57,765 nt of DNA, from the IMG/VR virus record IMGVR_UViG_3300009151_000002. One strand, 5' to 3'. The notes below the pieces were generated by a model, which was given only the letters and a program-made list of their open reading frames with translations, ran no database searches and had not been told where the DNA came from. This stretch comes from an uncultured virus (IMG/VR IMGVR_UViG_3300009151_000002). Lineage: Duplodnaviria > Heunggongvirae > Uroviricota > Caudoviricetes. The translations under genes and the position numbers were made by a program. The first letter of the stretch is position 1. Every line of letters begins with the position of its first letter. This document shows positions 23,355 through 57,765 of this stretch, one piece after another.

Positions 23355-23807
23355 TTATTTCAAGAAAAGTAATTTATATTTTGCAGAATTCATACTTGAT
23401 TTGACTAAGTCAAGATCATTTACAATTTCTGAGTAAGGCATTTTGTCTTGTAACTTACAAACCATATCACACATATCTTTTAAATAATCAATACCGTCAG
23501 CAACAGTATTTAATTTTCTAGGAGCAACTTCTTCATAAGATAATAATTTTTCACTAGCTCCTTGGAAACCTTCTGCTAAATCATCAGCATGTCCAGGTAA
23601 TGCATCATACAACTCATTAAGAGCTTTGTGAGCAGCAAAAGATCCAGCCCCAGTTACTTTTAAATGTAACTTGTGGAAACTAGTTGCAGCATTCATTAAT
23701 TCACTTACACAAGCTGCAGTAAGGGATTCTACATTACCATTAGCTGGAGCAGTAGCATATTCACTACTTGCTTTAACTGCACCCGGTCTCTTTAACATTC
23801 TTTGCAT
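23355..23807 (-). CDS. Dps/ferritin-like protein
   Basis: HKLHLKVTGAGSFAAHKALNELYD...DDLAE matches the Dps signature H-x-x-H-W-x-V-x-G...H-x-x-x-x-E-x-Y...D-x-x-AE. Confidence 0.75.
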   Translation of the reverse strand: MQRMLKRPGAVKASSEYATAPANGNVESLTAACVSELMNAATSFHKLHLKVTGAGSFAAHKALNELYDALPGHADDLAEGFQGASEKLLSYEEVAPRKLNTVADGIDYLKDMCDMVCKLQDKMPYSEIVNDLDLVKSSMNSAKYKLLFLK

Positions 23808-26960: not shown

Positions 26961-27533
26961 TTAACAATTCCATTTTCTTAAATATTCTTCTGCTTCAGAA
27001 GACTCTTTATTATAATATAGTAAATAAATCCGTGCAAACTCTAATAGAAATGGATCATCTTTAAAGTGACCTAAACCCATATTACAGTTATTGCAAAGCA
27101 TTCCCCTTACTATATTTGTAGTATGACAGTGATCAACTACAAGTTTTTCTTCAGATCCACATATAATACAACTTTCAGTTTTAATTAATTCTTTTAAATC
27201 TTCATCACTAATCATTGATCTATACTGACCTCTTCTTATTTCACTTCTATAATTTCCTCTACATGTTTTACACCAACTGTCAAAACCATCTAATGTTCTT
27301 TTATGTGCTGTAAAGAATTCATTTGTTCTTGGATTTTCTATGTTACATTTTTTACATGTTTTGTTTTCTGAAAAACCCTTTTCTAATTGTATTTTATTAT
27401 TATACTCTTTTGAACATGAAATACTACAAAAAACAGTATTATTCTTTTTTAAAGTTTTTTCAATATCTGACTTACCTCTTATAAAAAGAGTATTACAATG
27501 TGTACAATTATATTCTATTTTCTTTGATGGCAT
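26961..27533 (-). mobile_element. Free-standing endonuclease VII-like (His-Me) homing endonuclease
   Basis: CIICG...LVVDHCHTTNIVRGMLCNNCNMGLGHFKDD endo VII signature with N-terminal Zn fingers; flanked by 14-bp direct repeats. Confidence 0.8.
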
Positions 27534-27534
27534 A

Positions 27535-27813
27535 TCAACAATTCCATTTTTTCCTTGCTAATCTTAATCTACTATTTGGGTCTTTAGCTGCTTTTGGAAA
27601 ATTAGCCATTTGCCCTGCAGATCTAGCACAAAAACTTTTTCTTCTCTTAGCATCTTTGCTATCTGGATCAAGCTTTGATGGCTTAGTAGTCACAGCTGTC
27701 TTCATATTTCCCCCAGTAGCATTATTGTATTTAGCTACCCCTTTTGCTGTAAGACCTCCAGACTTTGATTTTTCACCCCTAGAAATTGATAGTGACACAC
27801 TTTTCTTGCTCAT
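27535..27813 (-). CDS. Conserved small basic phage protein (DUF6321-like)
   Basis: GGLTAKGVAKYN...KRRKSFCARS.GQ...KDPNSRLRLARKKWNC family pattern. Confidence 0.7.
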   Translation of the reverse strand: MSKKSVSLSISRGEKSKSGGLTAKGVAKYNNATGGNMKTAVTTKPSKLDPDSKDAKRRKSFCARSAGQMANFPKAAKDPNSRLRLARKKWNC

Positions 27814-28507
27814 AATCTTTTAAATATTTAAAATTATATTTATCACTTGTTCTTTTTCCAGTGCAAACCATGCTTATAAATGAATGACTAATGTTATATA
27901 CTTGTTTTGCTTCATTTATACAAGAATAAACAATATTAGTATTTAAATCTATAACTTTTTTTGCAAAACCATTATTACCTAATGTTTGGCTAATACTCAT
28001 TTTTTGTTTTGATAAGTCACTAGTTTTCTTTCCGTAATTCCAATGTCTATCACTTCTTGGTCTATCTGTTCTTTCAGATGCTAACTTACTCATTACTTTT
28101 TTAGTTTCTTCTGAATGTTTTTTTCCTTTTCTTGGGTCTGGATTATTTAATCTATAAAGTCTATTTTTTTCTTTTATTTTTTCAATAGTTGCTATTGTAT
28201 GTTTTACAGAATAGTCACCACCTTTTGTTCTATTATATCCATTTGGAACCATAGAGTTTAGTTCTTGAATAAACTGTACTTCAAATAGTTTTGCATCTTC
28301 TAAAGTTAAATTATCTTTTAGTATTTCAAATTTAAATTTTTCAAACCCATACTTTTTAATAGCCAAACAAAAAACAACTGCTCTGCTTCTCATTCCTTTA
28401 TGTTGCTTAAATCTTCTTTTTACATCAGAAGTAATACCAATATACTTTTTATTATTAATATTATTTGTAAAACAATACATTGAATAAAGTGCAGCTGTCT
28501 TTGCCAT
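27779..28507 (-). mobile_element. GIY-YIG homing endonuclease with NUMOD3/NUMOD1-like DNA-binding repeats
   Basis: SMYCFTNNINNKKYIGIT...R...H...E...GYNRTKGG, then KGKKHSEETKKVMS. Start moved to 28507 (MAKTAA) to avoid overlap with the upstream gene. Confidence 0.85.
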
Positions 28508-28518
28508 AGTTATTAATT

Positions 28519-29466
28519 TTATAAACCTGCTAAAAATTGTGTAGTTAAATCTACCCATCCTCCAACACTATTATATTTTTTAAATGATGTAACATTAATG
28601 TAAGCATTGTATCCATCATCTGTATTAATAAATGTTCCTGAACAATAAAATACATCAATTCCTGTTCCAACATTAGCACCAATTATTCCTGATGCACCTG
28701 TTAAAAAAGCATCTGAAGCTAATCTTATTTTTTCAGTAGCATAATCCATTTGAGCACCATAAGTTGGTATAGCTGCAAGAGCTGCTTTAAATGGAAATAG
28801 TATAGCACATAGAGTATAGTTTTGATAATCATTTGGAAAGTTTGTTACAACTGGAGCAACAGCATTTGCTGCTACCCATGTAATTGCTGTAGCAACTGCA
28901 CCACAAGTATTATCTGTTAAAGATTGTGCTTCACTTTTTCCTCTTCTCCAAATCCTTCCTACATTACCAGATCTTGATATTCCAATATGAGGAGTATTAA
29001 TCATAAATAAAGCACCATCTGTAGTTGTTGTAACATGTGATCCCCAAGCTTGTATACCTAATATACCTGTGTGAGGATAACCAGCTAAACCACCTGCCAT
29101 GAATGCACCTAAAAACTGATTCTGAGATGCAGGAGTCTGACCAATGTTTGAAATATCTGAATAAATAGGACCATCTATATCATCAGAACAAATTGAATCT
29201 GATAAAACTATATTATCTGGAGAGTAACCTTTTTCTTGTATAAAAGATTTAGCATAATCACCAAATCTTTGAACATTAACTGCTCCAGGATAAGTTACTT
29301 TAACTGTAGTATCATAGTCTACAGGGTTAGTTGTGTTTCTTTCAATACCTTCTACAACAGGAAACCAATCTCCTGATACAGGTTTAATACTAGAAAGAAT
29401 TAAAGCACCAGGTACAACAGTATCTGTTTTTGGATTTTTTAATGCATATGGAGTTAATTTTGCCAT
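28519..29466 (-). CDS. LCIB/LCIC-family (beta-type) carbonic anhydrase-like protein with N-terminal extension
   Basis: YPGA, SICSDD, AFMAGGLAGYPHTG..G..A...H, PHIGIS..G.VG...R.G and TCGA match LCIB/C conserved blocks, including the Cys/His/Cys Zn ligands. Confidence 0.8.
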   Translation of the reverse strand: MAKLTPYALKNPKTDTVVPGALILSSIKPVSGDWFPVVEGIERNTTNPVDYDTTVKVTYPGAVNVQRFGDYAKSFIQEKGYSPDNIVLSDSICSDDIDGPIYSDISNIGQTPASQNQFLGAFMAGGLAGYPHTGILGIQAWGSHVTTTTDGALFMINTPHIGISRSGNVGRIWRRGKSEAQSLTDNTCGAVATAITWVAANAVAPVVTNFPNDYQNYTLCAILFPFKAALAAIPTYGAQMDYATEKIRLASDAFLTGASGIIGANVGTGIDVFYCSGTFINTDDGYNAYINVTSFKKYNSVGGWVDLTTQFLAGL

Positions 29467-37712: not shown

Positions 37713-38504
37713 CTATATTAATTTAAATACTGTTTTATTTTTTGTAACTCCGTTAAGTTGTCTATTCAAAGTAGAATTATTAAATCCATATTTTTTACAT
37801 ACATCAGATATTGAACTGAAAATTTCTTTTGTTTCCAAGTTAATAACTTTTTTTTGAACAAATGAATAATCTTTATTTATGTTTATAAGAGACTTATCTG
37901 ATAAGTCATAAACTATTTTATTTTTTAATTCTTCAATTTCTTGTTTGCTAATTATATTTCCAAACTTTAAATAATAATCATTTATAGATTTGCTTACAAC
38001 ACAAGCTCTTCTTACTCTTGATGAACTAGTATTTAAAAATAAAGCTGCTTCTACCAATGTATTAAACTTATATATAATATACGTTTTTAAATTGATAAGT
38101 ACAACCTTTCTACTGTTCCTATTAACAAATACACCACCTTTTCTACAATGAGGCTTATCTTTAAATCTACTTTTTGCAGCAGTTGATATTTTTAATTTTG
38201 TTTCTGGAGAATGTTTTAAATTTAATATACCTTCACCACCATCTGTTAAATTGCATAATGTACCTGCGTATATATCAGATCTTCCATATTGTTCAATATA
38301 CTGTTTTTCTTTTTGACAAGCTTCTTCCCATGTAATATCAGAATGTAATATTTCAACTAAAAATTCAGTATTGTTTTTGTGTACAATATTTTTCCAATAC
38401 TTATTACGACTACATCTTGCATAGGCTCTATTTAAAGTTTTACCAATACCTATATAAAATACATCTTGAGTATCAATTCTTATATGTTTATATACACAGG
38501 CCAT
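37713..38504 (-). mobile_element. Free-standing GIY-YIG homing endonuclease between terminase and portal
   Basis: CVYKHIRIDTQDVFYIGIG...RA...E...LCNLTDGGEG, plus KHSPETKLKIS (NUMOD3) and NUMOD1-like C-terminal repeats. Confidence 0.85.
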
Positions 38505-53111: not shown

Positions 53112-54674
53112 TTAAATTGCTAGTAAAGGTATTTTGTAGTTAGCTCCATTGATTCTAACTGTCCAAGTTCTATTAGGTGTGATAGTTTCTGTTGTTACAG
53201 CTCCTGCATTATAAGATGTACTACCTACTACAAATTGATTGTTAGCTGTAGCATAAGCACCATGTCCAATTACAATTGTACCAGAATAATTTATAGGAGT
53301 TGCATTTTGACCTATCGCAATATTATTAGAACCTGTATAACATTGTTGTAATACAGTTTTTCCAATACCAATATTGTTTTGTCCTGTAGTTATATTTCTA
53401 AATGAATCATTCCCTATAGCAATATTGTCACTTGCTGCTGAAAAACCAGGGTATAAAGCACTATTTCCAATTGCTATATTTCCAGATCCCTCATTAAACT
53501 GAGCTGCAGAATAACCAATTGCAGTATTACCATTACCTGTACCACGTTCTAATGCTGACCGACCTACTGCCGTATTAAGAGAACTAACTGTACTATCACG
53601 CATTGCACCATCACCGATTACAGTATTATTACTACCCGTTGTATTATTACCTAATGTACCAAATCCAATTCCAACATTTGATTGTCCAGTTGTATTATAT
53701 CTTAATGATTGATTACCAACAGCTATATTTTGTGTACCTGTAGTATTAGTTCGTAATGAATCATTACCAATTGATGTATTGTTATTAGCAGTAGTATTAG
53801 ATAATAAAGCACTAACACCAATAGCAATATTATTTTCACCACTTATATTACTTTGTAATGCACTTAATCCAACTGCTGTATTTAATATTCCTGTGGTATT
53901 ACTTAAAAGTGCATTTGCAGCAATAGCTACGTTGCCATAACCTGTTGTATTTGTATACAAGGATGCATAACCAACAGCTACATTTGAGTTACCTGTAGTA
54001 TTAGACCGTAATGTTAAATATCCTACACCAGTATTATTATTACCATTTGTTACACGTAATGCTTCATTACCTACTGCAGTATTACCCGTTGCTGTTGTAG
54101 TATTATATAATGCTTGAAGACCAATACCAATGTTATTATTACCTGTTGTATTTGCAAGTAATGCTCCTGATCCTACAGCTATATTTTTAAAACCTGTAGT
54201 GTTTTCTCTTAAAGCTTCATAACCTATACTAGTATTGTTTGTACCTGAAGTGTTACTTCTTAAAGCATTATCACCATATGTTGTGTTTGTTAAAACATCA
54301 CCTTTACCATTAGACCATACTGTTTTATCAGTAGTATTATACTCAATAAAACTTGGTAATCCAACTGTTAAATCTCCAGAACCTAATATACTAGAACCAT
54401 TAATAGTTTTAATATTACTACCTGAAAATAATAAAGGTTGTTTACCATTAATTATGTTCATTAAATCATTCTGATCATTAATGTTTCCTATAATAGTTCC
54501 CCATACAGGAATACTACTAACTTGAGATTTTAAATCTGCAAAAGTTACACCTAATGTATTACCTTGTAAACTGCTTCCTATTGATAAAGGTAACACAGCT
54601 TCATCTGGAATTGTTGTTATTATATTATTGGATGTCAATGGATATCCAAAATTTATTTGTCCTGTAAAACTCAT
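53112..54674 (-). CDS. Long trimeric beta-roll (YadA-head-like) tail fibre
   Basis: About 19 tandem repeats of N[TIV]A[IV]G..AL..NTTG; GTATATTA box at 54707-54714 upstream. Confidence 0.8.
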   Translation of the reverse strand: MSFTGQINFGYPLTSNNIITTIPDEAVLPLSIGSSLQGNTLGVTFADLKSQVSSIPVWGTIIGNINDQNDLMNIINGKQPLLFSGSNIKTINGSSILGSGDLTVGLPSFIEYNTTDKTVWSNGKGDVLTNTTYGDNALRSNTSGTNNTSIGYEALRENTTGFKNIAVGSGALLANTTGNNNIGIGLQALYNTTTATGNTAVGNEALRVTNGNNNTGVGYLTLRSNTTGNSNVAVGYASLYTNTTGYGNVAIAANALLSNTTGILNTAVGLSALQSNISGENNIAIGVSALLSNTTANNNTSIGNDSLRTNTTGTQNIAVGNQSLRYNTTGQSNVGIGFGTLGNNTTGSNNTVIGDGAMRDSTVSSLNTAVGRSALERGTGNGNTAIGYSAAQFNEGSGNIAIGNSALYPGFSAASDNIAIGNDSFRNITTGQNNIGIGKTVLQQCYTGSNNIAIGQNATPINYSGTIVIGHGAYATANNQFVVGSTSYNAGAVTTETITPNRTWTVRINGANYKIPLLAI

Positions 54675-54726
54675 AGATTTTTTATTTTAACTATAAATAC
54701 TATTAATAATATACAAAAAAAATTTC

Positions 54727-54756
54727 ATAAAAAAAAGCCCTAGTAAAAACCAGGGC
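54727..54756 (-). terminator. Rho-independent terminator
   Basis: GCCCTGGT-TTTT-ACTAGGGC followed by a run of T. Confidence 0.8.
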
Positions 54757-54777
54757 CCTTTTATATAAATAAAAAAT

Positions 54778-54984
54778 TTAATTAATCATCATGTTAGAAA
54801 TAACACCTAGAAGAAATGATATAAAACACATTATAATTATTGCTAAGTTAGCTTTAGTTACTTTCTCGGTATCTTCTTGCCACATGTTATATACTTTATT
54901 GTATATAGGCATACGCCAAGAATTTTGTAATCCATACAGTATATATATAATAATTACACCAATAAGTAAACAAACAATAATCAT
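54778..54984 (-). CDS. Small two-TM membrane protein
   Basis: 68 aa with two hydrophobic segments; ATGA-coupled to the upstream gene. Confidence 0.55.
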   Translation of the reverse strand: MIIVCLLIGVIIIYILYGLQNSWRMPIYNKVYNMWQEDTEKVTKANLAIIIMCFISFLLGVISNMMIN

Positions 54985-55358
54985 AAACTATCAATTCTAC
55001 GCTGTAAATATACTAAAGCTTTTTGTAAATCCTCTTTTTCTTTTGCAGAATTTTTTTTACCAGCTCTTGCAACATACTTAATAACATTACCTAAATAAAA
55101 ATCTTTATCAAGATTCCAAGCTTCTAATACTTTAAATACTTCATACGTACTATCAGCTCCACCGTAATGCTCAGGTCTTAATGCATCTGGTTGTTCTATA
55201 GGAGAAGTTGTTGGTGTCCATTTACGGGAAAATTTATCAAATTCTTTCTTATTGTACTCCTGTGGATCAACCCATTTAGGCTCTGTAGACATACTTACAT
55301 TTTTATTGAGATCTTTCATAACACATTTATTATACTGTTCGTAACGCAATTCATTCAT
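54981..55358 (-). CDS. DUF3310 protein (T7 gp1.7-like putative nucleotide kinase family)
   Basis: PEHY...E....FYLGNVIKYVARAGKK...EDLQKALVYL. Confidence 0.8.
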   Translation of the reverse strand: MNELRYEQYNKCVMKDLNKNVSMSTEPKWVDPQEYNKKEFDKFSRKWTPTTSPIEQPDALRPEHYGGADSTYEVFKVLEAWNLDKDFYLGNVIKYVARAGKKNSAKEKEDLQKALVYLQRRIDSL

Positions 55359-55359
55359 C

Positions 55360-55635
55360 TCAGTATACTATTGCAATATCAAACTCTTTTACTAACAATT
55401 TAATCTGACCATCTAGATCAATTTTCTCAGCTCCTTCTAAAGCAAATGTTTGTACATATACTTTGTCTCCAGCTTTTACTTTTTCTACTTCATCTCCTAC
55501 AGAGTGAATTTCTAACTGTGTCCATTTTTTAACTGCTTCTTTTTCGCGCTCTGCTTCTTGCATAGGGCTTAACTCAATTACTGCTTTGTCAATAACTGGA
55601 ATGTTAATCAAGATTCTTTTTCCTAATAGTCTCAT
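55360..55635 (-). CDS. groES: GroES-like co-chaperonin
   Basis: MRLLGKRILI...IHSVGDEVEKVKAGDKVY...LLVKEFDIAIVY. Confidence 0.75.
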   Translation of the reverse strand: MRLLGKRILINIPVIDKAVIELSPMQEAEREKEAVKKWTQLEIHSVGDEVEKVKAGDKVYVQTFALEGAEKIDLDGQIKLLVKEFDIAIVY

Positions 55636-55647
55636 CTTTTCTTTTAT

Positions 55648-55983
55648 TTATTGTTTATTAAATCCTTCTACCTGTCTTCTTTGACGGTCTCTTGTTCTTG
55701 CATCTTGCCAGTGAATAGCTTCTTCAATTTTAGTAATAGACAAAGCATTTTCTCTACAAGGAAAAGCTTCATTCAGACTTTCAAATAAACACTTGACATA
55801 TTTCAACATGTCTAATGCTTGTACTCCATTTACACCTACTTCAGAAATCGGGTCTGATTGAATTGTAAATTTAACAATAGGAGCAACACCTTTAATATCT
55901 TCTGTATTTTCAATTTGAATGAACTGTGTCCATTTCTCATTCTCTTCATTGTATTTTAACAATGCTTTTTCTACGTGTCTCAT
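55648..55983 (-). CDS. tad1: Tad1-like anti-Thoeris/anti-CBASS nucleotide-signal sponge
   Basis: F.IQ..P..E.GVNGV...D...L...FPCRENALSITKIEEAIHW...RT.DR..R.VEG matches the Tad1 C-terminal signature (F..RENA.A.T..EEA..W...R..DR..R.V.G). Confidence 0.75.
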   Translation of the reverse strand: MRHVEKALLKYNEENEKWTQFIQIENTEDIKGVAPIVKFTIQSDPISEVGVNGVQALDMLKYVKCLFESLNEAFPCRENALSITKIEEAIHWQDARTRDRQRRQVEGFNKQ

Positions 55984-55988
55984 GTTTT

Positions 55989-56264
55989 TTATTTAAATGT
56001 AATTACTTTTACTACTGCCATCTGGGCACTTATTAATTCACCAACTGCGTGGTCAAACAATAAACTTTTAACTGGGTTTCCTGGTCCTTCTTGGTAGGAA
56101 TCTTTTAGAATGTTAGCTGCTTCTGCAAATAATTCTTTTACTTTAGCTACACCAGCATCATTAGATGGATTGAACTCAATCCCTACTAACTGTTCACCAA
56201 ATGAAAGCACCTTAGTTTCATTCATTCCAATTACTTCCGGAATACTTACTACTGTTTCACTCAT
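55989..56264 (-). CDS. Acb2-like helical-hairpin sponge protein
   Basis: FGEQLVGIEFNPS....V.KVK...A....AQMAVVKVITF resembles the Acb2/Tad1 hairpin family. Confidence 0.6.
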   Translation of the reverse strand: MSETVVSIPEVIGMNETKVLSFGEQLVGIEFNPSNDAGVAKVKELFAEAANILKDSYQEGPGNPVKSLLFDHAVGELISAQMAVVKVITFK

Positions 56265-56347
56265 TACTTTTTGTTTTTAGTTATTGTTAACCATTGAAGC
56301 CATCCTTTCAATGCTTCAATCTTTTGCTTGTTACTTGTCTTACTCAT
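56264..56347 (-). CDS. 27-aa micro-ORF, not in ORF track
   Basis: MSKTSNKQKIEALKGWLQWLTITKNKK*; ATGA overlap upstream and TAATG overlap downstream. Confidence 0.6.
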   Translation of the reverse strand: MSKTSNKQKIEALKGWLQWLTITKNKK

Positions 56348-56631
56348 ATTAATTTACTTTCTGTTTTTTTTACTTTTAAGAAACTATTCTCTAATTGCTC
56401 TTCTGTTATTACACTCAAGTTACCTTCAGTATCCTTTACAATATACTCATCAGGATTACATCTCTTAGGACCTAGATCAGTATGCACATATAATGTTAAC
56501 TGTTTTGTATTTGCTGGCATAATAAACTCAGCTTTTCCATTTGTAAATTCAAAGACAAAATTTCTGTTATCATCTACATATTTCAATACATCAACATATG
56601 CAGGCTTAGTCATATATCTTTCAATCATCAC
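56344..56631 (-). CDS. Small phage protein of the KYRKKPV...TLEG...GDYII family (possibly Acb4-like sponge)
   Basis: RYMTKPAYVDVLKY...VHTDLG....PDEYIVKDTEG is a divergent version of that family pattern; the link to Acb4 is from recall only. Confidence 0.45.
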   Translation of the reverse strand: MMIERYMTKPAYVDVLKYVDDNRNFVFEFTNGKAEFIMPANTKQLTLYVHTDLGPKRCNPDEYIVKDTEGNLSVITEEQLENSFLKVKKTESKLI

Positions 56632-56855
56632 GCATCATATTTATTATTTATAATATTCACAGACGGCAATTCTTCAGCTGCACCATCCTCATCATAGTCT
56701 CTTGCTAGTAAATCAAACTTTACTTTTTCTAATAACCCTACTATAACTGGAATAGTAGATTTATCAACCTTCTGGAGTCTGATCTCAAACTTATCTTCTA
56801 AATTAATACTGATTTCTACAAGGACTATAGGTTCCCTTTTTTTACTCTTACTCAT
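56628..56855 (-). CDS. Hypothetical protein
   Basis: 75 aa; preceded by TATATTTG (56875-56882) and the AAACCAACAAAC leader. Confidence 0.6.
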   Translation of the reverse strand: MSKSKKREPIVLVEISINLEDKFEIRLQKVDKSTIPVIVGLLEKVKFDLLARDYDEDGAAEELPSVNIINNKYDA

Positions 56856-56894
56856 ACTTAGTTTGTTGGTTTCACAAATATATGAATTATTTTA

Positions 56895-57060
56895 AATAAA
56901 AAAACCCAGGAAGTAATTCTTGATCAGAGAAACTTTCCTGGGTGTTGCTAACAGTTATACTTTACAGCTTTCCTGCGCAGAGAAGACCAGAGATAGTGAG
57001 CAGATCTTACGGTATGCTTACCTGGTACTGAACCTGCAGATCCTATCTACAGGGGAGTAT
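56895..57060 (-). ncRNA. Candidate structured ncRNA ending in a terminator
   Basis: GC-enriched region with no credible ORF. Hairpins CCUGUAGAU/AUCUGCAGG, ACCAG..CUGGU enclosing AGCA/UGCU, and terminator ACCCAGGAA...UUCCUGGGU plus U-run. Confidence 0.45.
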
Positions 57061-57088
57061 ATATTGTTGTTCTCTAAGAACAGGTTGT

Positions 57089-57165
57089 TAAAACAAAACC
57101 CTGGCTTTTTACACCAGGGCTTCACAACATACTAGGCTTTGCGGAAACAGCACCTAAACGACAGA
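57089..57165 (-). ncRNA. Candidate ~70-nt small RNA
   Basis: TATATTTG promoter box at 57167-57174, hairpin UAGGU/GCCUA, terminator GCCCUGG..CCAGGGU-UUUGUUUU; no ORF. Confidence 0.45.
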
Positions 57166-57179
57166 ACAAATATATACAA

Positions 57180-57420
57180 CTTTTCTTACCCCACATATAA
57201 TCTAAAAAAAATTTTTTATAAAAATTTCATGATGTGTAATAACCCCCCACTCATGTTACCACATGGTAACTTACCCCATGGTAATATCTCTCTGAGAGAT
57301 TCACTAATATATATTTACGGTATTTGGGGCCTGTATATGTAGTGAGATGTGGTTACCCCCTAGTGGAGCAACCCCCCGCCCCGCGCGTCAGGCCCCTACC
57401 CCCGGTGCTTGCTCAACCAC
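57180..57420. other. Strand-switch region with palindromes and GC-rich C-tracts (candidate packaging/terminus or origin element)
   Basis: GTTACCA-CA-TGGTAAC, TTACC-CCAT-GGTAA and ATCTCTC-T-GAGAGAT in tandem; four C-runs at 57372-57403 in an otherwise very AT-rich window. Confidence 0.4.
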
Positions 57421-57501
57421 ATATTGCATATGTAATATAACTATAACATTTTTTCTAGTGAAAAAATGATCAACCCTACATACATAATAAAATTATTTAT
57501 T

Positions 57502-57738
57502 ATGGAATCTAAATTTATTCAAACACAAACCTTTCTGGTGAAAGTTTTGTCTTCAAAGAAATTTGATAAAATGTTTGTTCTCAAACTTGTCAATAGTGAC
57601 AAGTTCTTACCCAGAACATTTGTATCCAATCTACCTGCAGGTACCAAGTCTGGTGACTTGATGTACCTTGACGGCAGATTGTACACTAATAAAGCTGGCT
57701 ATGAAGCCATCTATATTAGTTCAGCAAGACCAGCTTAG
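57502..57738 (+). CDS. Small hypothetical protein (possible OB-fold), first gene of divergent module
   Basis: 78 aa from MESKF, A-rich leader, followed by a terminator. Confidence 0.65.
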   Translation: MESKFIQTQTFLVKVLSSKKFDKMFVLKLVNSDKFLPRTFVSNLPAGTKSGDLMYLDGRLYTNKAGYEAIYISSARPA

Positions 57739-57760
57739 GCTGGTTTTGCTTTTCTTTTTT
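57723..57760 (+). terminator. Rho-independent terminator
   Basis: AGCAAGACCAGC-TTAG-GCTGGTTTTGCT followed by TTCTTTTTT. Confidence 0.8.
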
Positions 57761-57765
57761 CCCTC

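Follow-up and report, generated by a model that had tools for sequence, protein, structure and literature searches.

A conserved gene block in an uncultured virus with an Acb2-family gene and a Tad1 gene in a probable exchange slot for immune-signal sponges

We have analysed a stretch of 57,765 nt (the window) from the uncultured virus IMGVR_UViG_3300009151_000002, in which a block of eight minus-strand genes contains members of two known families of immune-signal sponges, Tad1 and Acb2. In the reading that we favour, and hold to be probable, this is a conserved eight-gene block with a fixed Acb2-family gene, into which tad1 has been inserted at a swappable slot, and both products would soak up signals of the Thoeris and CBASS (cyclic oligonucleotide-based antiphage signalling system) defences. 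The initial annotation of the region had described an anti-defence operon, which fits the two sponge genes and is overstated for the remainder, the GroES-like gene, the DUF3310 gene and a hydrophobic 68-aa gene being near-constant backbone. As judged from its gene content, the block is not a pure anti-defence operon but a housekeeping-like one in which anti-signalling genes occupy swappable slots. The features that carry this reading are:

55989..56264, minus strand: gene for a 91-aa Acb2-family hairpin protein (orthologue in a published Acb2 table, transitive PF24729 link, hairpin model)
55648..55983, minus strand: Tad1-family sponge gene, 111 aa, on a 345-bp accessory insert
55987..55995, minus strand: 9-bp AT-rich direct repeat, the left boundary of the tad1 insert as placed by alignment of filled and empty sites, with a second copy at 55642-55650

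The tad1 insert and its slot

The product of 55648-55983 is by homology a Tad1, in agreement with the signature noted there initially. It matches CmTad1 (PDB 8KBB) with a phmmer E-value of 5e-13 and CbTad1 with 3e-6, a profile built from 27 sequences reaches a solved Tad1 at E 1.1e-22, and the annotated tad1 of SBSphiJ7 is matched by tblastn at 42%. According to the available text of Li et al. (PMC10680739), R90 and T97 of CbTad1 bind cyclic trinucleotides, and F82, N92, R109 and R113 bind glycocyclic ADP-ribose (gcADPR) and cyclic dinucleotides. Counted by hand on the CbTad1 sequence and the phmmer alignment, R90, T97, N92, R109 and R113 correspond to R77, T84, N79, R96 and R100 of the window protein and F82 to L70, such that five of the six mutation-tested pocket residues are identical; the trinucleotide-pocket pair is retained, and the gcADPR/dinucleotide pocket has three identical residues and one conservative change (L70). 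The window Tad1 may thus be expected to take up cyclic trinucleotides in its central pockets and, in the peripheral ones, gcADPR or cyclic dinucleotides. A tested homologue with Leu at the same spacing (number 62) blocked type I Thoeris and one CBASS in the available part of Hadary et al. (PMC12393519), in whose homologue table the motif of the window Tad1's subclade occurs 18 times, with no occurrence among the tested proteins.

The gene lies on an insert of 345 bp between the two copies of the 9-mer, a repeat so short that it could be due to chance. Presence and absence of the insert were followed across 80 viral loci chosen through the 91-aa gene (the best 80 of 199 relatives, forming 42 clusters, with some loci truncated). 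The slot between the Acb2 gene and the GroES-like gene is empty in 65 of these and filled in 15, by tad1 (two: L036 and L001, the latter identical to the window here), a Tad2 fusion (one: L023), an unnamed 65-68-aa family either fused to Sequestin (two: L042 and L045) or alone (six), a KYRKKPV gene (three), or a KYRKKPV gene together with a second Acb2-like gene (one: L080). The backbone around the slot is conserved, with the GroES-like gene in 80/80 loci, DUF3310 in 78/80 and a KYRKKPV-like gene in 75/80, followed by the 68-aa gene (71/80), a 75-aa-like gene (60/80) and the 27-aa gene (56/80). Of 55 loci, 21 have an occupied second slot, which lies after the 94-aa gene, and in four of these the occupant is Sequestin. 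Between the window and L036, nucleotide identity is 96% for tad1 as against 55-81% for its seven flanking genes, a difference indicating that tad1 was transferred recently. With tad1 itself as query, 67 loci were recovered, most of them with other neighbours, although it is also near an Acb2-like gene in L089, L115 and L116.

The Acb2-family gene

The assignment of the 91-aa protein to the Acb2 family, which the initial annotation had made from its hairpin-like sequence, is supported by transitive links. Its relatives number 459 among 462 candidates; an orthologue on the L047 contig (81% identical) is row 3429 of the Acb2 sheet in Table S1 of PMC12393519, and the motif of its subclade occurs 95 times in that sheet. 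Searches with tblastn connect the protein to EcP1 gp26 (E 4e-4) and to a Pmp11 protein (E 6e-7). In a joint alignment (A6), five of the twelve members match PF24729 with a best E-value of 1.3e-13, and the same family is found on 16, 13 and 75% of the members of its ESM Atlas neighbours. The structural model has two antiparallel helices, residues 32-56 and 63-88, with a pLDDT (predicted local distance difference test) value of about 90 there and a disordered N-terminus of 19 residues; the highest query TM-score listed for it, 0.53, is that to T4 Acb2 (7UQ2).

The two ligand sites of Acb2 appear to have fared differently. K43 aligns with K26 of the dinucleotide site in T4 and JBD67 Acb2 and is invariant in 41 homologues, and the equivalent of Acb2 Y11 may be either F31 or F22, an uncertain assignment given the different spacing. 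At the trinucleotide site G75 occupies the position of T74 and there is no Arg at that of R67, and an invariant Asp71 and a near-invariant His72 lie close by. R67 and T74 vary within the Acb2 family, and T4 Acb2 is a working sponge that does not bind cyclic tri-adenylate (cA3). Because K43 is kept and the R67 and T74 equivalents are replaced, we infer that this variant binds cyclic dinucleotides and probably not cA3, as reported for T4 Acb2. Among the proteins tested in PMC12393519, eight (2, 8, 12, 15, 24, 36, 41 and 42) were picked by eye as belonging to the wider FNP-type clade; in the available part of that study six of these inhibited a CBASS, Thoeris I too being blocked by one of the six, and two were inactive.

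The KYRKKPV family, the backbone genes and transcription

The remaining features of the block, together with its flanking signals, are as follows:

56628..56855, minus strand: 75-aa conserved protein of no known family
56344..56628, minus strand: 94-aa divergent KYRKKPV-family (PGDYG-like) protein, a candidate for binding signals
56264..56347, minus strand: 27-aa basic conserved peptide of no known family (isoelectric point 10.4; ratio of nonsynonymous to synonymous polymorphism, pN/pS, 0.29 over 25 orthologues)
55360..55635, minus strand: 91-aa GroES-like (Cpn10) protein, by weak matches (PF00166 E 0.0046, phrog_3188 E 0.017, NF001537 E 0.0069)
54981..55358, minus strand: DUF3310 protein, labelled nucleotide kinase in PHROG (PF11753 E 2.9e-13, phrog_236 E 4.4e-17)
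54778..54984, minus strand: 68-aa protein with two hydrophobic stretches and sub-threshold hits to membrane families
56875..56882, minus strand: putative Bacteroidota-type -7 promoter element, TATATTTG
56890..56960, minus strand: terminator-like hairpin and U-run directly upstream of the promoter (RNA fold -17.7 kcal/mol)
54715..54775, minus strand: terminator-like hairpin and U-run at the end of the block (RNA fold -23.0 kcal/mol)

Open reading frames (ORFs) of 75, 95, 27, 91 and 111 aa and that of DUF3310, all on the minus strand, had been given initially with coordinates that we retain. The GroES-like gene, which lies between tad1 and DUF3310 and whose Cpn10 match is below the cut-off, had been missed, and the range then assigned to the cluster (54981..56855) takes in the other named genes and leaves the 68-aa gene almost wholly outside. 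All eight genes are real and conserved, with pooled pN/pS values of 0.07-0.50 against distinct orthologues (the tad1 value comes from one pair).

The 94-aa gene is the 95-aa ORF at 56344-56631 counted from the ATG at 56628, and is by homology a divergent member of the KYRKKPV family, as first suggested. It matches phrog_419 (E 3.6e-6, residues 1-76), shares with canonical KYRKKPV proteins its hits to five PHROGs (419, 1810, 4159, 10664 and 4502), and is joined to the canonical form by an unbroken series of intermediates. Its canonical TLEG and YPCKPDIF motifs are missing, and the activity of this copy may therefore differ from that of the family. The further label of a possible Acb4 does not hold. 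Acb4 is PF13876, with a fold (alpha-beta-beta-beta-alpha) like that of double-stranded RNA-binding domains according to the available text of PMC11722364; PF13876 has no match in the 94-aa protein, nor in the genome even at E<=1, and the model of the 94-aa protein (pLDDT 87) has a strand, a helix, five strands and a helix (E-H-E-E-E-E-E-H). A fold search with this model found no PDB match at E<=0.001, in a library for which the presence of the Acb4 chain was not verified, and a sequence search of the PDB with the family returned nothing.

The KYRKKPV family comprises 24,600 clusters at 50% identity. Among the best 150 hits to its profile, 93 are 115 aa or longer, and 91 of these were scanned, two giant repeat proteins being left out. 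A known sponge domain is present on three (Tad2, Acb2/Tad1 and Sequestin) and another Pfam family on six (DUF4406, DUF551 twice, WDGH, a zinc ribbon and a weak GAS), five match the PGDYG model only, and 77 are without a Pfam hit. In the tables of Tal et al. (PMC12265669) a motif of the KYRKKPV family occurs four times among Lockin rows and ten times among Sequestin rows, and the motifs tried had no occurrence in the 124-candidate screen of that study. Among sponges the domain thus has fusions to Tad2, Acb2/Tad1, Sequestin and Lockin, four families in all, but it is joined to a good deal else besides, a nucleotide pyrophosphohydrolase family being one case, and it forms tandem repeats. In one protein of 3,743 aa (P0152), 31 stretches match the KYRKKPV profile, and the domain can evidently build long tandem arrays. 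A literature search on the function of KYRKKPV/PGDYG (PF14083) proteins, with subscription journals mostly outside its range, found nothing beyond titles on plants. Exchange and fusion make it likely that the KYRKKPV gene belongs to the same anti-signalling toolkit as the sponges.

The second family of this kind is the unnamed one that occupies the slot in six loci, with the following positions:

L027:4288-4494, L028:3138-3335 and L052-L055:4282-4482: unnamed 65-68-aa family
L042/L045:4293-4751: fused form, joined to Sequestin

The free and fused forms share 48% identity over 80 aa (E 3e-20). The family has no match in Pfam, PHROG or NCBIfam, a viral scan with it returned only its six known loci, and no longer fusions were seen among seven candidates, which is weak evidence. 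It is a candidate for a new sponge family. Other slot occupants also have unnamed parts. For the front domain of the Tad2 fusion (L023:379-606) no described function was seen; a motif of such domains has 291 occurrences in the Sequestin table and is found on rows of Lockin, Acb2 and Tad2 as well. Homology of this front domain to KYRKKPV was suspected from motifs, and an hhalign probability of 0.6 leaves it unsupported. In 8-11 loci the second slot is occupied by two further unnamed genes, L033:3288-3494 (68 aa) and L033:3497-3910 (137 aa), neither of which matches Pfam or PHROG.

The 75-, 27- and 68-aa genes, which had been put forward as possible new inhibitors, have no family match in Pfam, PHROG or NCBIfam; no fusion of any of them to a sponge was seen in the loci, and the tables from Tal et al. 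show none for the 75-aa motif. Nothing beyond position links them to defence, and on present sequence comparisons they are, with the GroES-like and DUF3310 genes, backbone. The block's unassigned genes have no Pfam match to Tad2, Sequestin or RyR-domain families; Lockin, Acb5 and TadIV-1, checked only by the fold search with the 94-aa model, gave no match; and PF11195 and PF21825 are absent from the genome, the search for PF21825 having had no positive control. DUF3310 was indeed present where it had been described, and a literature search showed no anti-defence study of it among the titles listed. The 68-aa protein is likely to be membrane-bound. In L007 and L017 its gene shows 100% identity, but in L002 only 57%, as against 84-98% for the other genes of that locus, which suggests allele swapping. 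A longer form of the GroES-like gene (131 aa) occurs in L050, L051 and L056.

The host-type promoter noted initially is borne out by motif comparison. The element begins 27 nt upstream of the first ATG and corresponds to the Bacteroidota -7 consensus in the available text of PMC6847099, and the motif is present within 60 nt of the start in 25/25 distinct related upstream sequences (which, as relatives, are not independent), whereas the 198 sites genome-wide on both strands give an expectation of about 0.04 per such 60-nt window. A -33 TTTG partner is not evident by eye, and a sigma-70 promoter scan showed no excess (26 vs 29.8 in shuffled sequence). With one promoter and one terminator bounding all eight genes, and hairpins with U-runs on both flanks, the block is likely to be a single transcription unit of the host polymerase. 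Downstream of a second TATATTTG at 57174 (57085-57174, minus strand), a hairpin and U-run come within about 90 nt, and no ORF lies in the interval; this is possibly a small-RNA cassette, although it has no Rfam match and no clear genome target by short blastn. Rfam gave no match at E<=1 over 54600-57765.

The window represents positions 62,001-119,765 of a complete virus record of 119,765 bp with 31.8% GC. A plus-strand arm contains replication-type genes, and a minus-strand arm contains the terminase, portal and capsid genes and three giant ORFs of 2,240-3,465 aa, a layout that we take to be crAss-like; the block stands at the 5' head of this latter arm, in agreement with the position first proposed. 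The promoter motif suggests a Bacteroidota host. The best matches of the capsid protein are distant and mixed, at 28% to a phage recorded on Leptolyngbya and 26% to Cellulophaga phages. A Dps-like (starvation-inducible) gene and three endonuclease genes lie within the structural arm (23355-23807, 26961-27533, 27779-28558 and 37713-38504), one of the endonuclease genes being between terminase and portal.

Competing interpretations and comparison with known systems

Several observations weigh against two working sponges in a swappable arrangement. The 91-aa protein itself has no sequence match in Pfam, PHROG or the PDB by phmmer or profile search, and its profile aligns with T4 and JBD67 Acb2 at hhalign probabilities of 0.2 and 0.3, which are not significant. 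The Foldseek comparison proposed in the initial annotation returned T4 Acb2 for the hairpin at rank 36 (E 5.6, not significant) and no PDB match for the 94-aa model. The motif of the 91-aa subclade is in none of the tested Acb2 proteins of PMC12393519; in the available part of that study the two tested proteins with the most similar C-terminus are split, 24 being inactive and 36 active, and several tested Tad1 homologues are inactive. Tad1 scores below the PF24729 gathering threshold (19.9 against a cut-off of 27 bits), although its membership holds since the PDB match outweighs this. The constancy of the 91-aa gene is partly circular because the loci were selected by it, and motifs are what supports co-transcription and its timing. 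It is conceivable that only tad1 is anti-defence, that the hairpin has drifted to another job in a housekeeping block and that the KYRKKPV gene has nothing to do with signalling: the 91-aa gene is core-like and under strong conservation (pN/pS 0.24) where the proven sponges here are patchy, its cA3-site Arg and Thr are replaced with Asp71 and His72 nearby, and the direct comparisons with characterised Acb2 are not significant. We nevertheless consider this unlikely, given that the lysine aligned with the dinucleotide site is invariant, that T4 Acb2 functions as a sponge while failing to bind cA3, that most tested FNP-type relatives are active, and that in L080 two Acb2-like copies flank a KYRKKPV gene.

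Less probable still is the initial proposal, that anti-defence is the role of the entire block, with an Acb4-type sponge in it and new inhibitors to be sought in the 75-, 27- and 68-aa genes. The enclosure of all eight genes by one promoter and one terminator would agree with it, as would the insertion of known sponges at two positions inside the block, but the search for PF13876 and the topology of the 94-aa model speak against Acb4, the three small genes have neither a family match nor a sponge fusion, and the GroES-like and DUF3310 genes point to chaperone and nucleotide-metabolism roles. If, as we favour, the block combines a fixed Acb2-family gene with a slot occupied by tad1, the host polymerase would transcribe it from the -7 promoter, and Tad1 and the Acb2 variant would each assemble into hexamers that sequester Thoeris and CBASS alarm nucleotides before these reach their effectors, so that the host's suicide effectors stay off. 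The fixed Acb2 gene would cover dinucleotides, and the slot would let lineages add Thoeris or trinucleotide cover; since the Acb2 variant probably does not bind cA3, the Tad1 insert would add both.

Two sponge genes by themselves would be ordinary, because members of Tad1 and Acb2 are common and catalogued; a review of October 2026 (PMC13712596) has both among seven sponge families in its available text, and the window's subclades of both are present in published homologue tables. The sponge genes are new members of known families, and the interest lies in the swappable slot, a single site at which Tad1, Tad2 and Sequestin genes trade places and whose other occupants provide a short, ranked list of candidates for testing. 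The KYRKKPV and unnamed 65-68-aa families are the novel lead, and are candidates because they are fused to or exchanged with known sponges. We advance only tentatively, and would not assume, that the KYRKKPV proteins sponge or cleave immune signals and so make up an eighth phage family of this kind, far larger than any of the other seven and with a fold absent from the PDB, and that the unnamed family is a second such addition; searches for newer sponge families returned no paper that deals with KYRKKPV in its title or the start of its abstract. The KYRKKPV family is of great size, with neither a described function nor a solved fold, and if it does bind an immune signal it could report on signals still to be identified. 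The Acb2 subclade with its altered central pocket offers a cheap way to probe change in sponge specificity.

Compared with solved Tad1 (CmTad1, PDB 8KBB; CbTad1, PDB 7UAV/8KBE-H) and with SBSphiJ7 Tad1, the window protein has the same beta-strand region and two-helix C-terminal half, but it is shorter, at 111 aa, with a different N-terminus and Leu in place of Phe82. With Acb2 (PaMx33, JBD67, T4 Vs.4; PF24729; the FNP-type clade of PMC12393519) the 91-aa protein shares the two-helix hairpin and the K26 equivalent, as well as the C-terminal Met-Ala-x-x-Lys/Arg register, and it differs in Gly75 at the T74 position, the lack of an Arg at R67 and the disordered N-terminus of its model; direct comparison gives no significant match with solved Acb2, and its gene behaves as a fixed one in the clade. 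The 94-aa protein resembles Acb4 of SPO1 (PF13876) in being a small phage protein that adjoins sponge genes and in nothing more, given the lack of a sequence match and a beta-alpha-five beta-alpha model. To PGDYG (PF14083)/phrog_419 it is related through the five common PHROGs and an orthologue that matches PF14083 at E 6.7e-4, below the cut-off, and is set apart by loss of the two canonical motifs. Finally, the argument from domains fused to known sponges is that by which Sequestin was discovered, as described in the available text of Tal et al. (PMC12265669), and to it we add here, from sequences alone, exchange at a single genomic slot.

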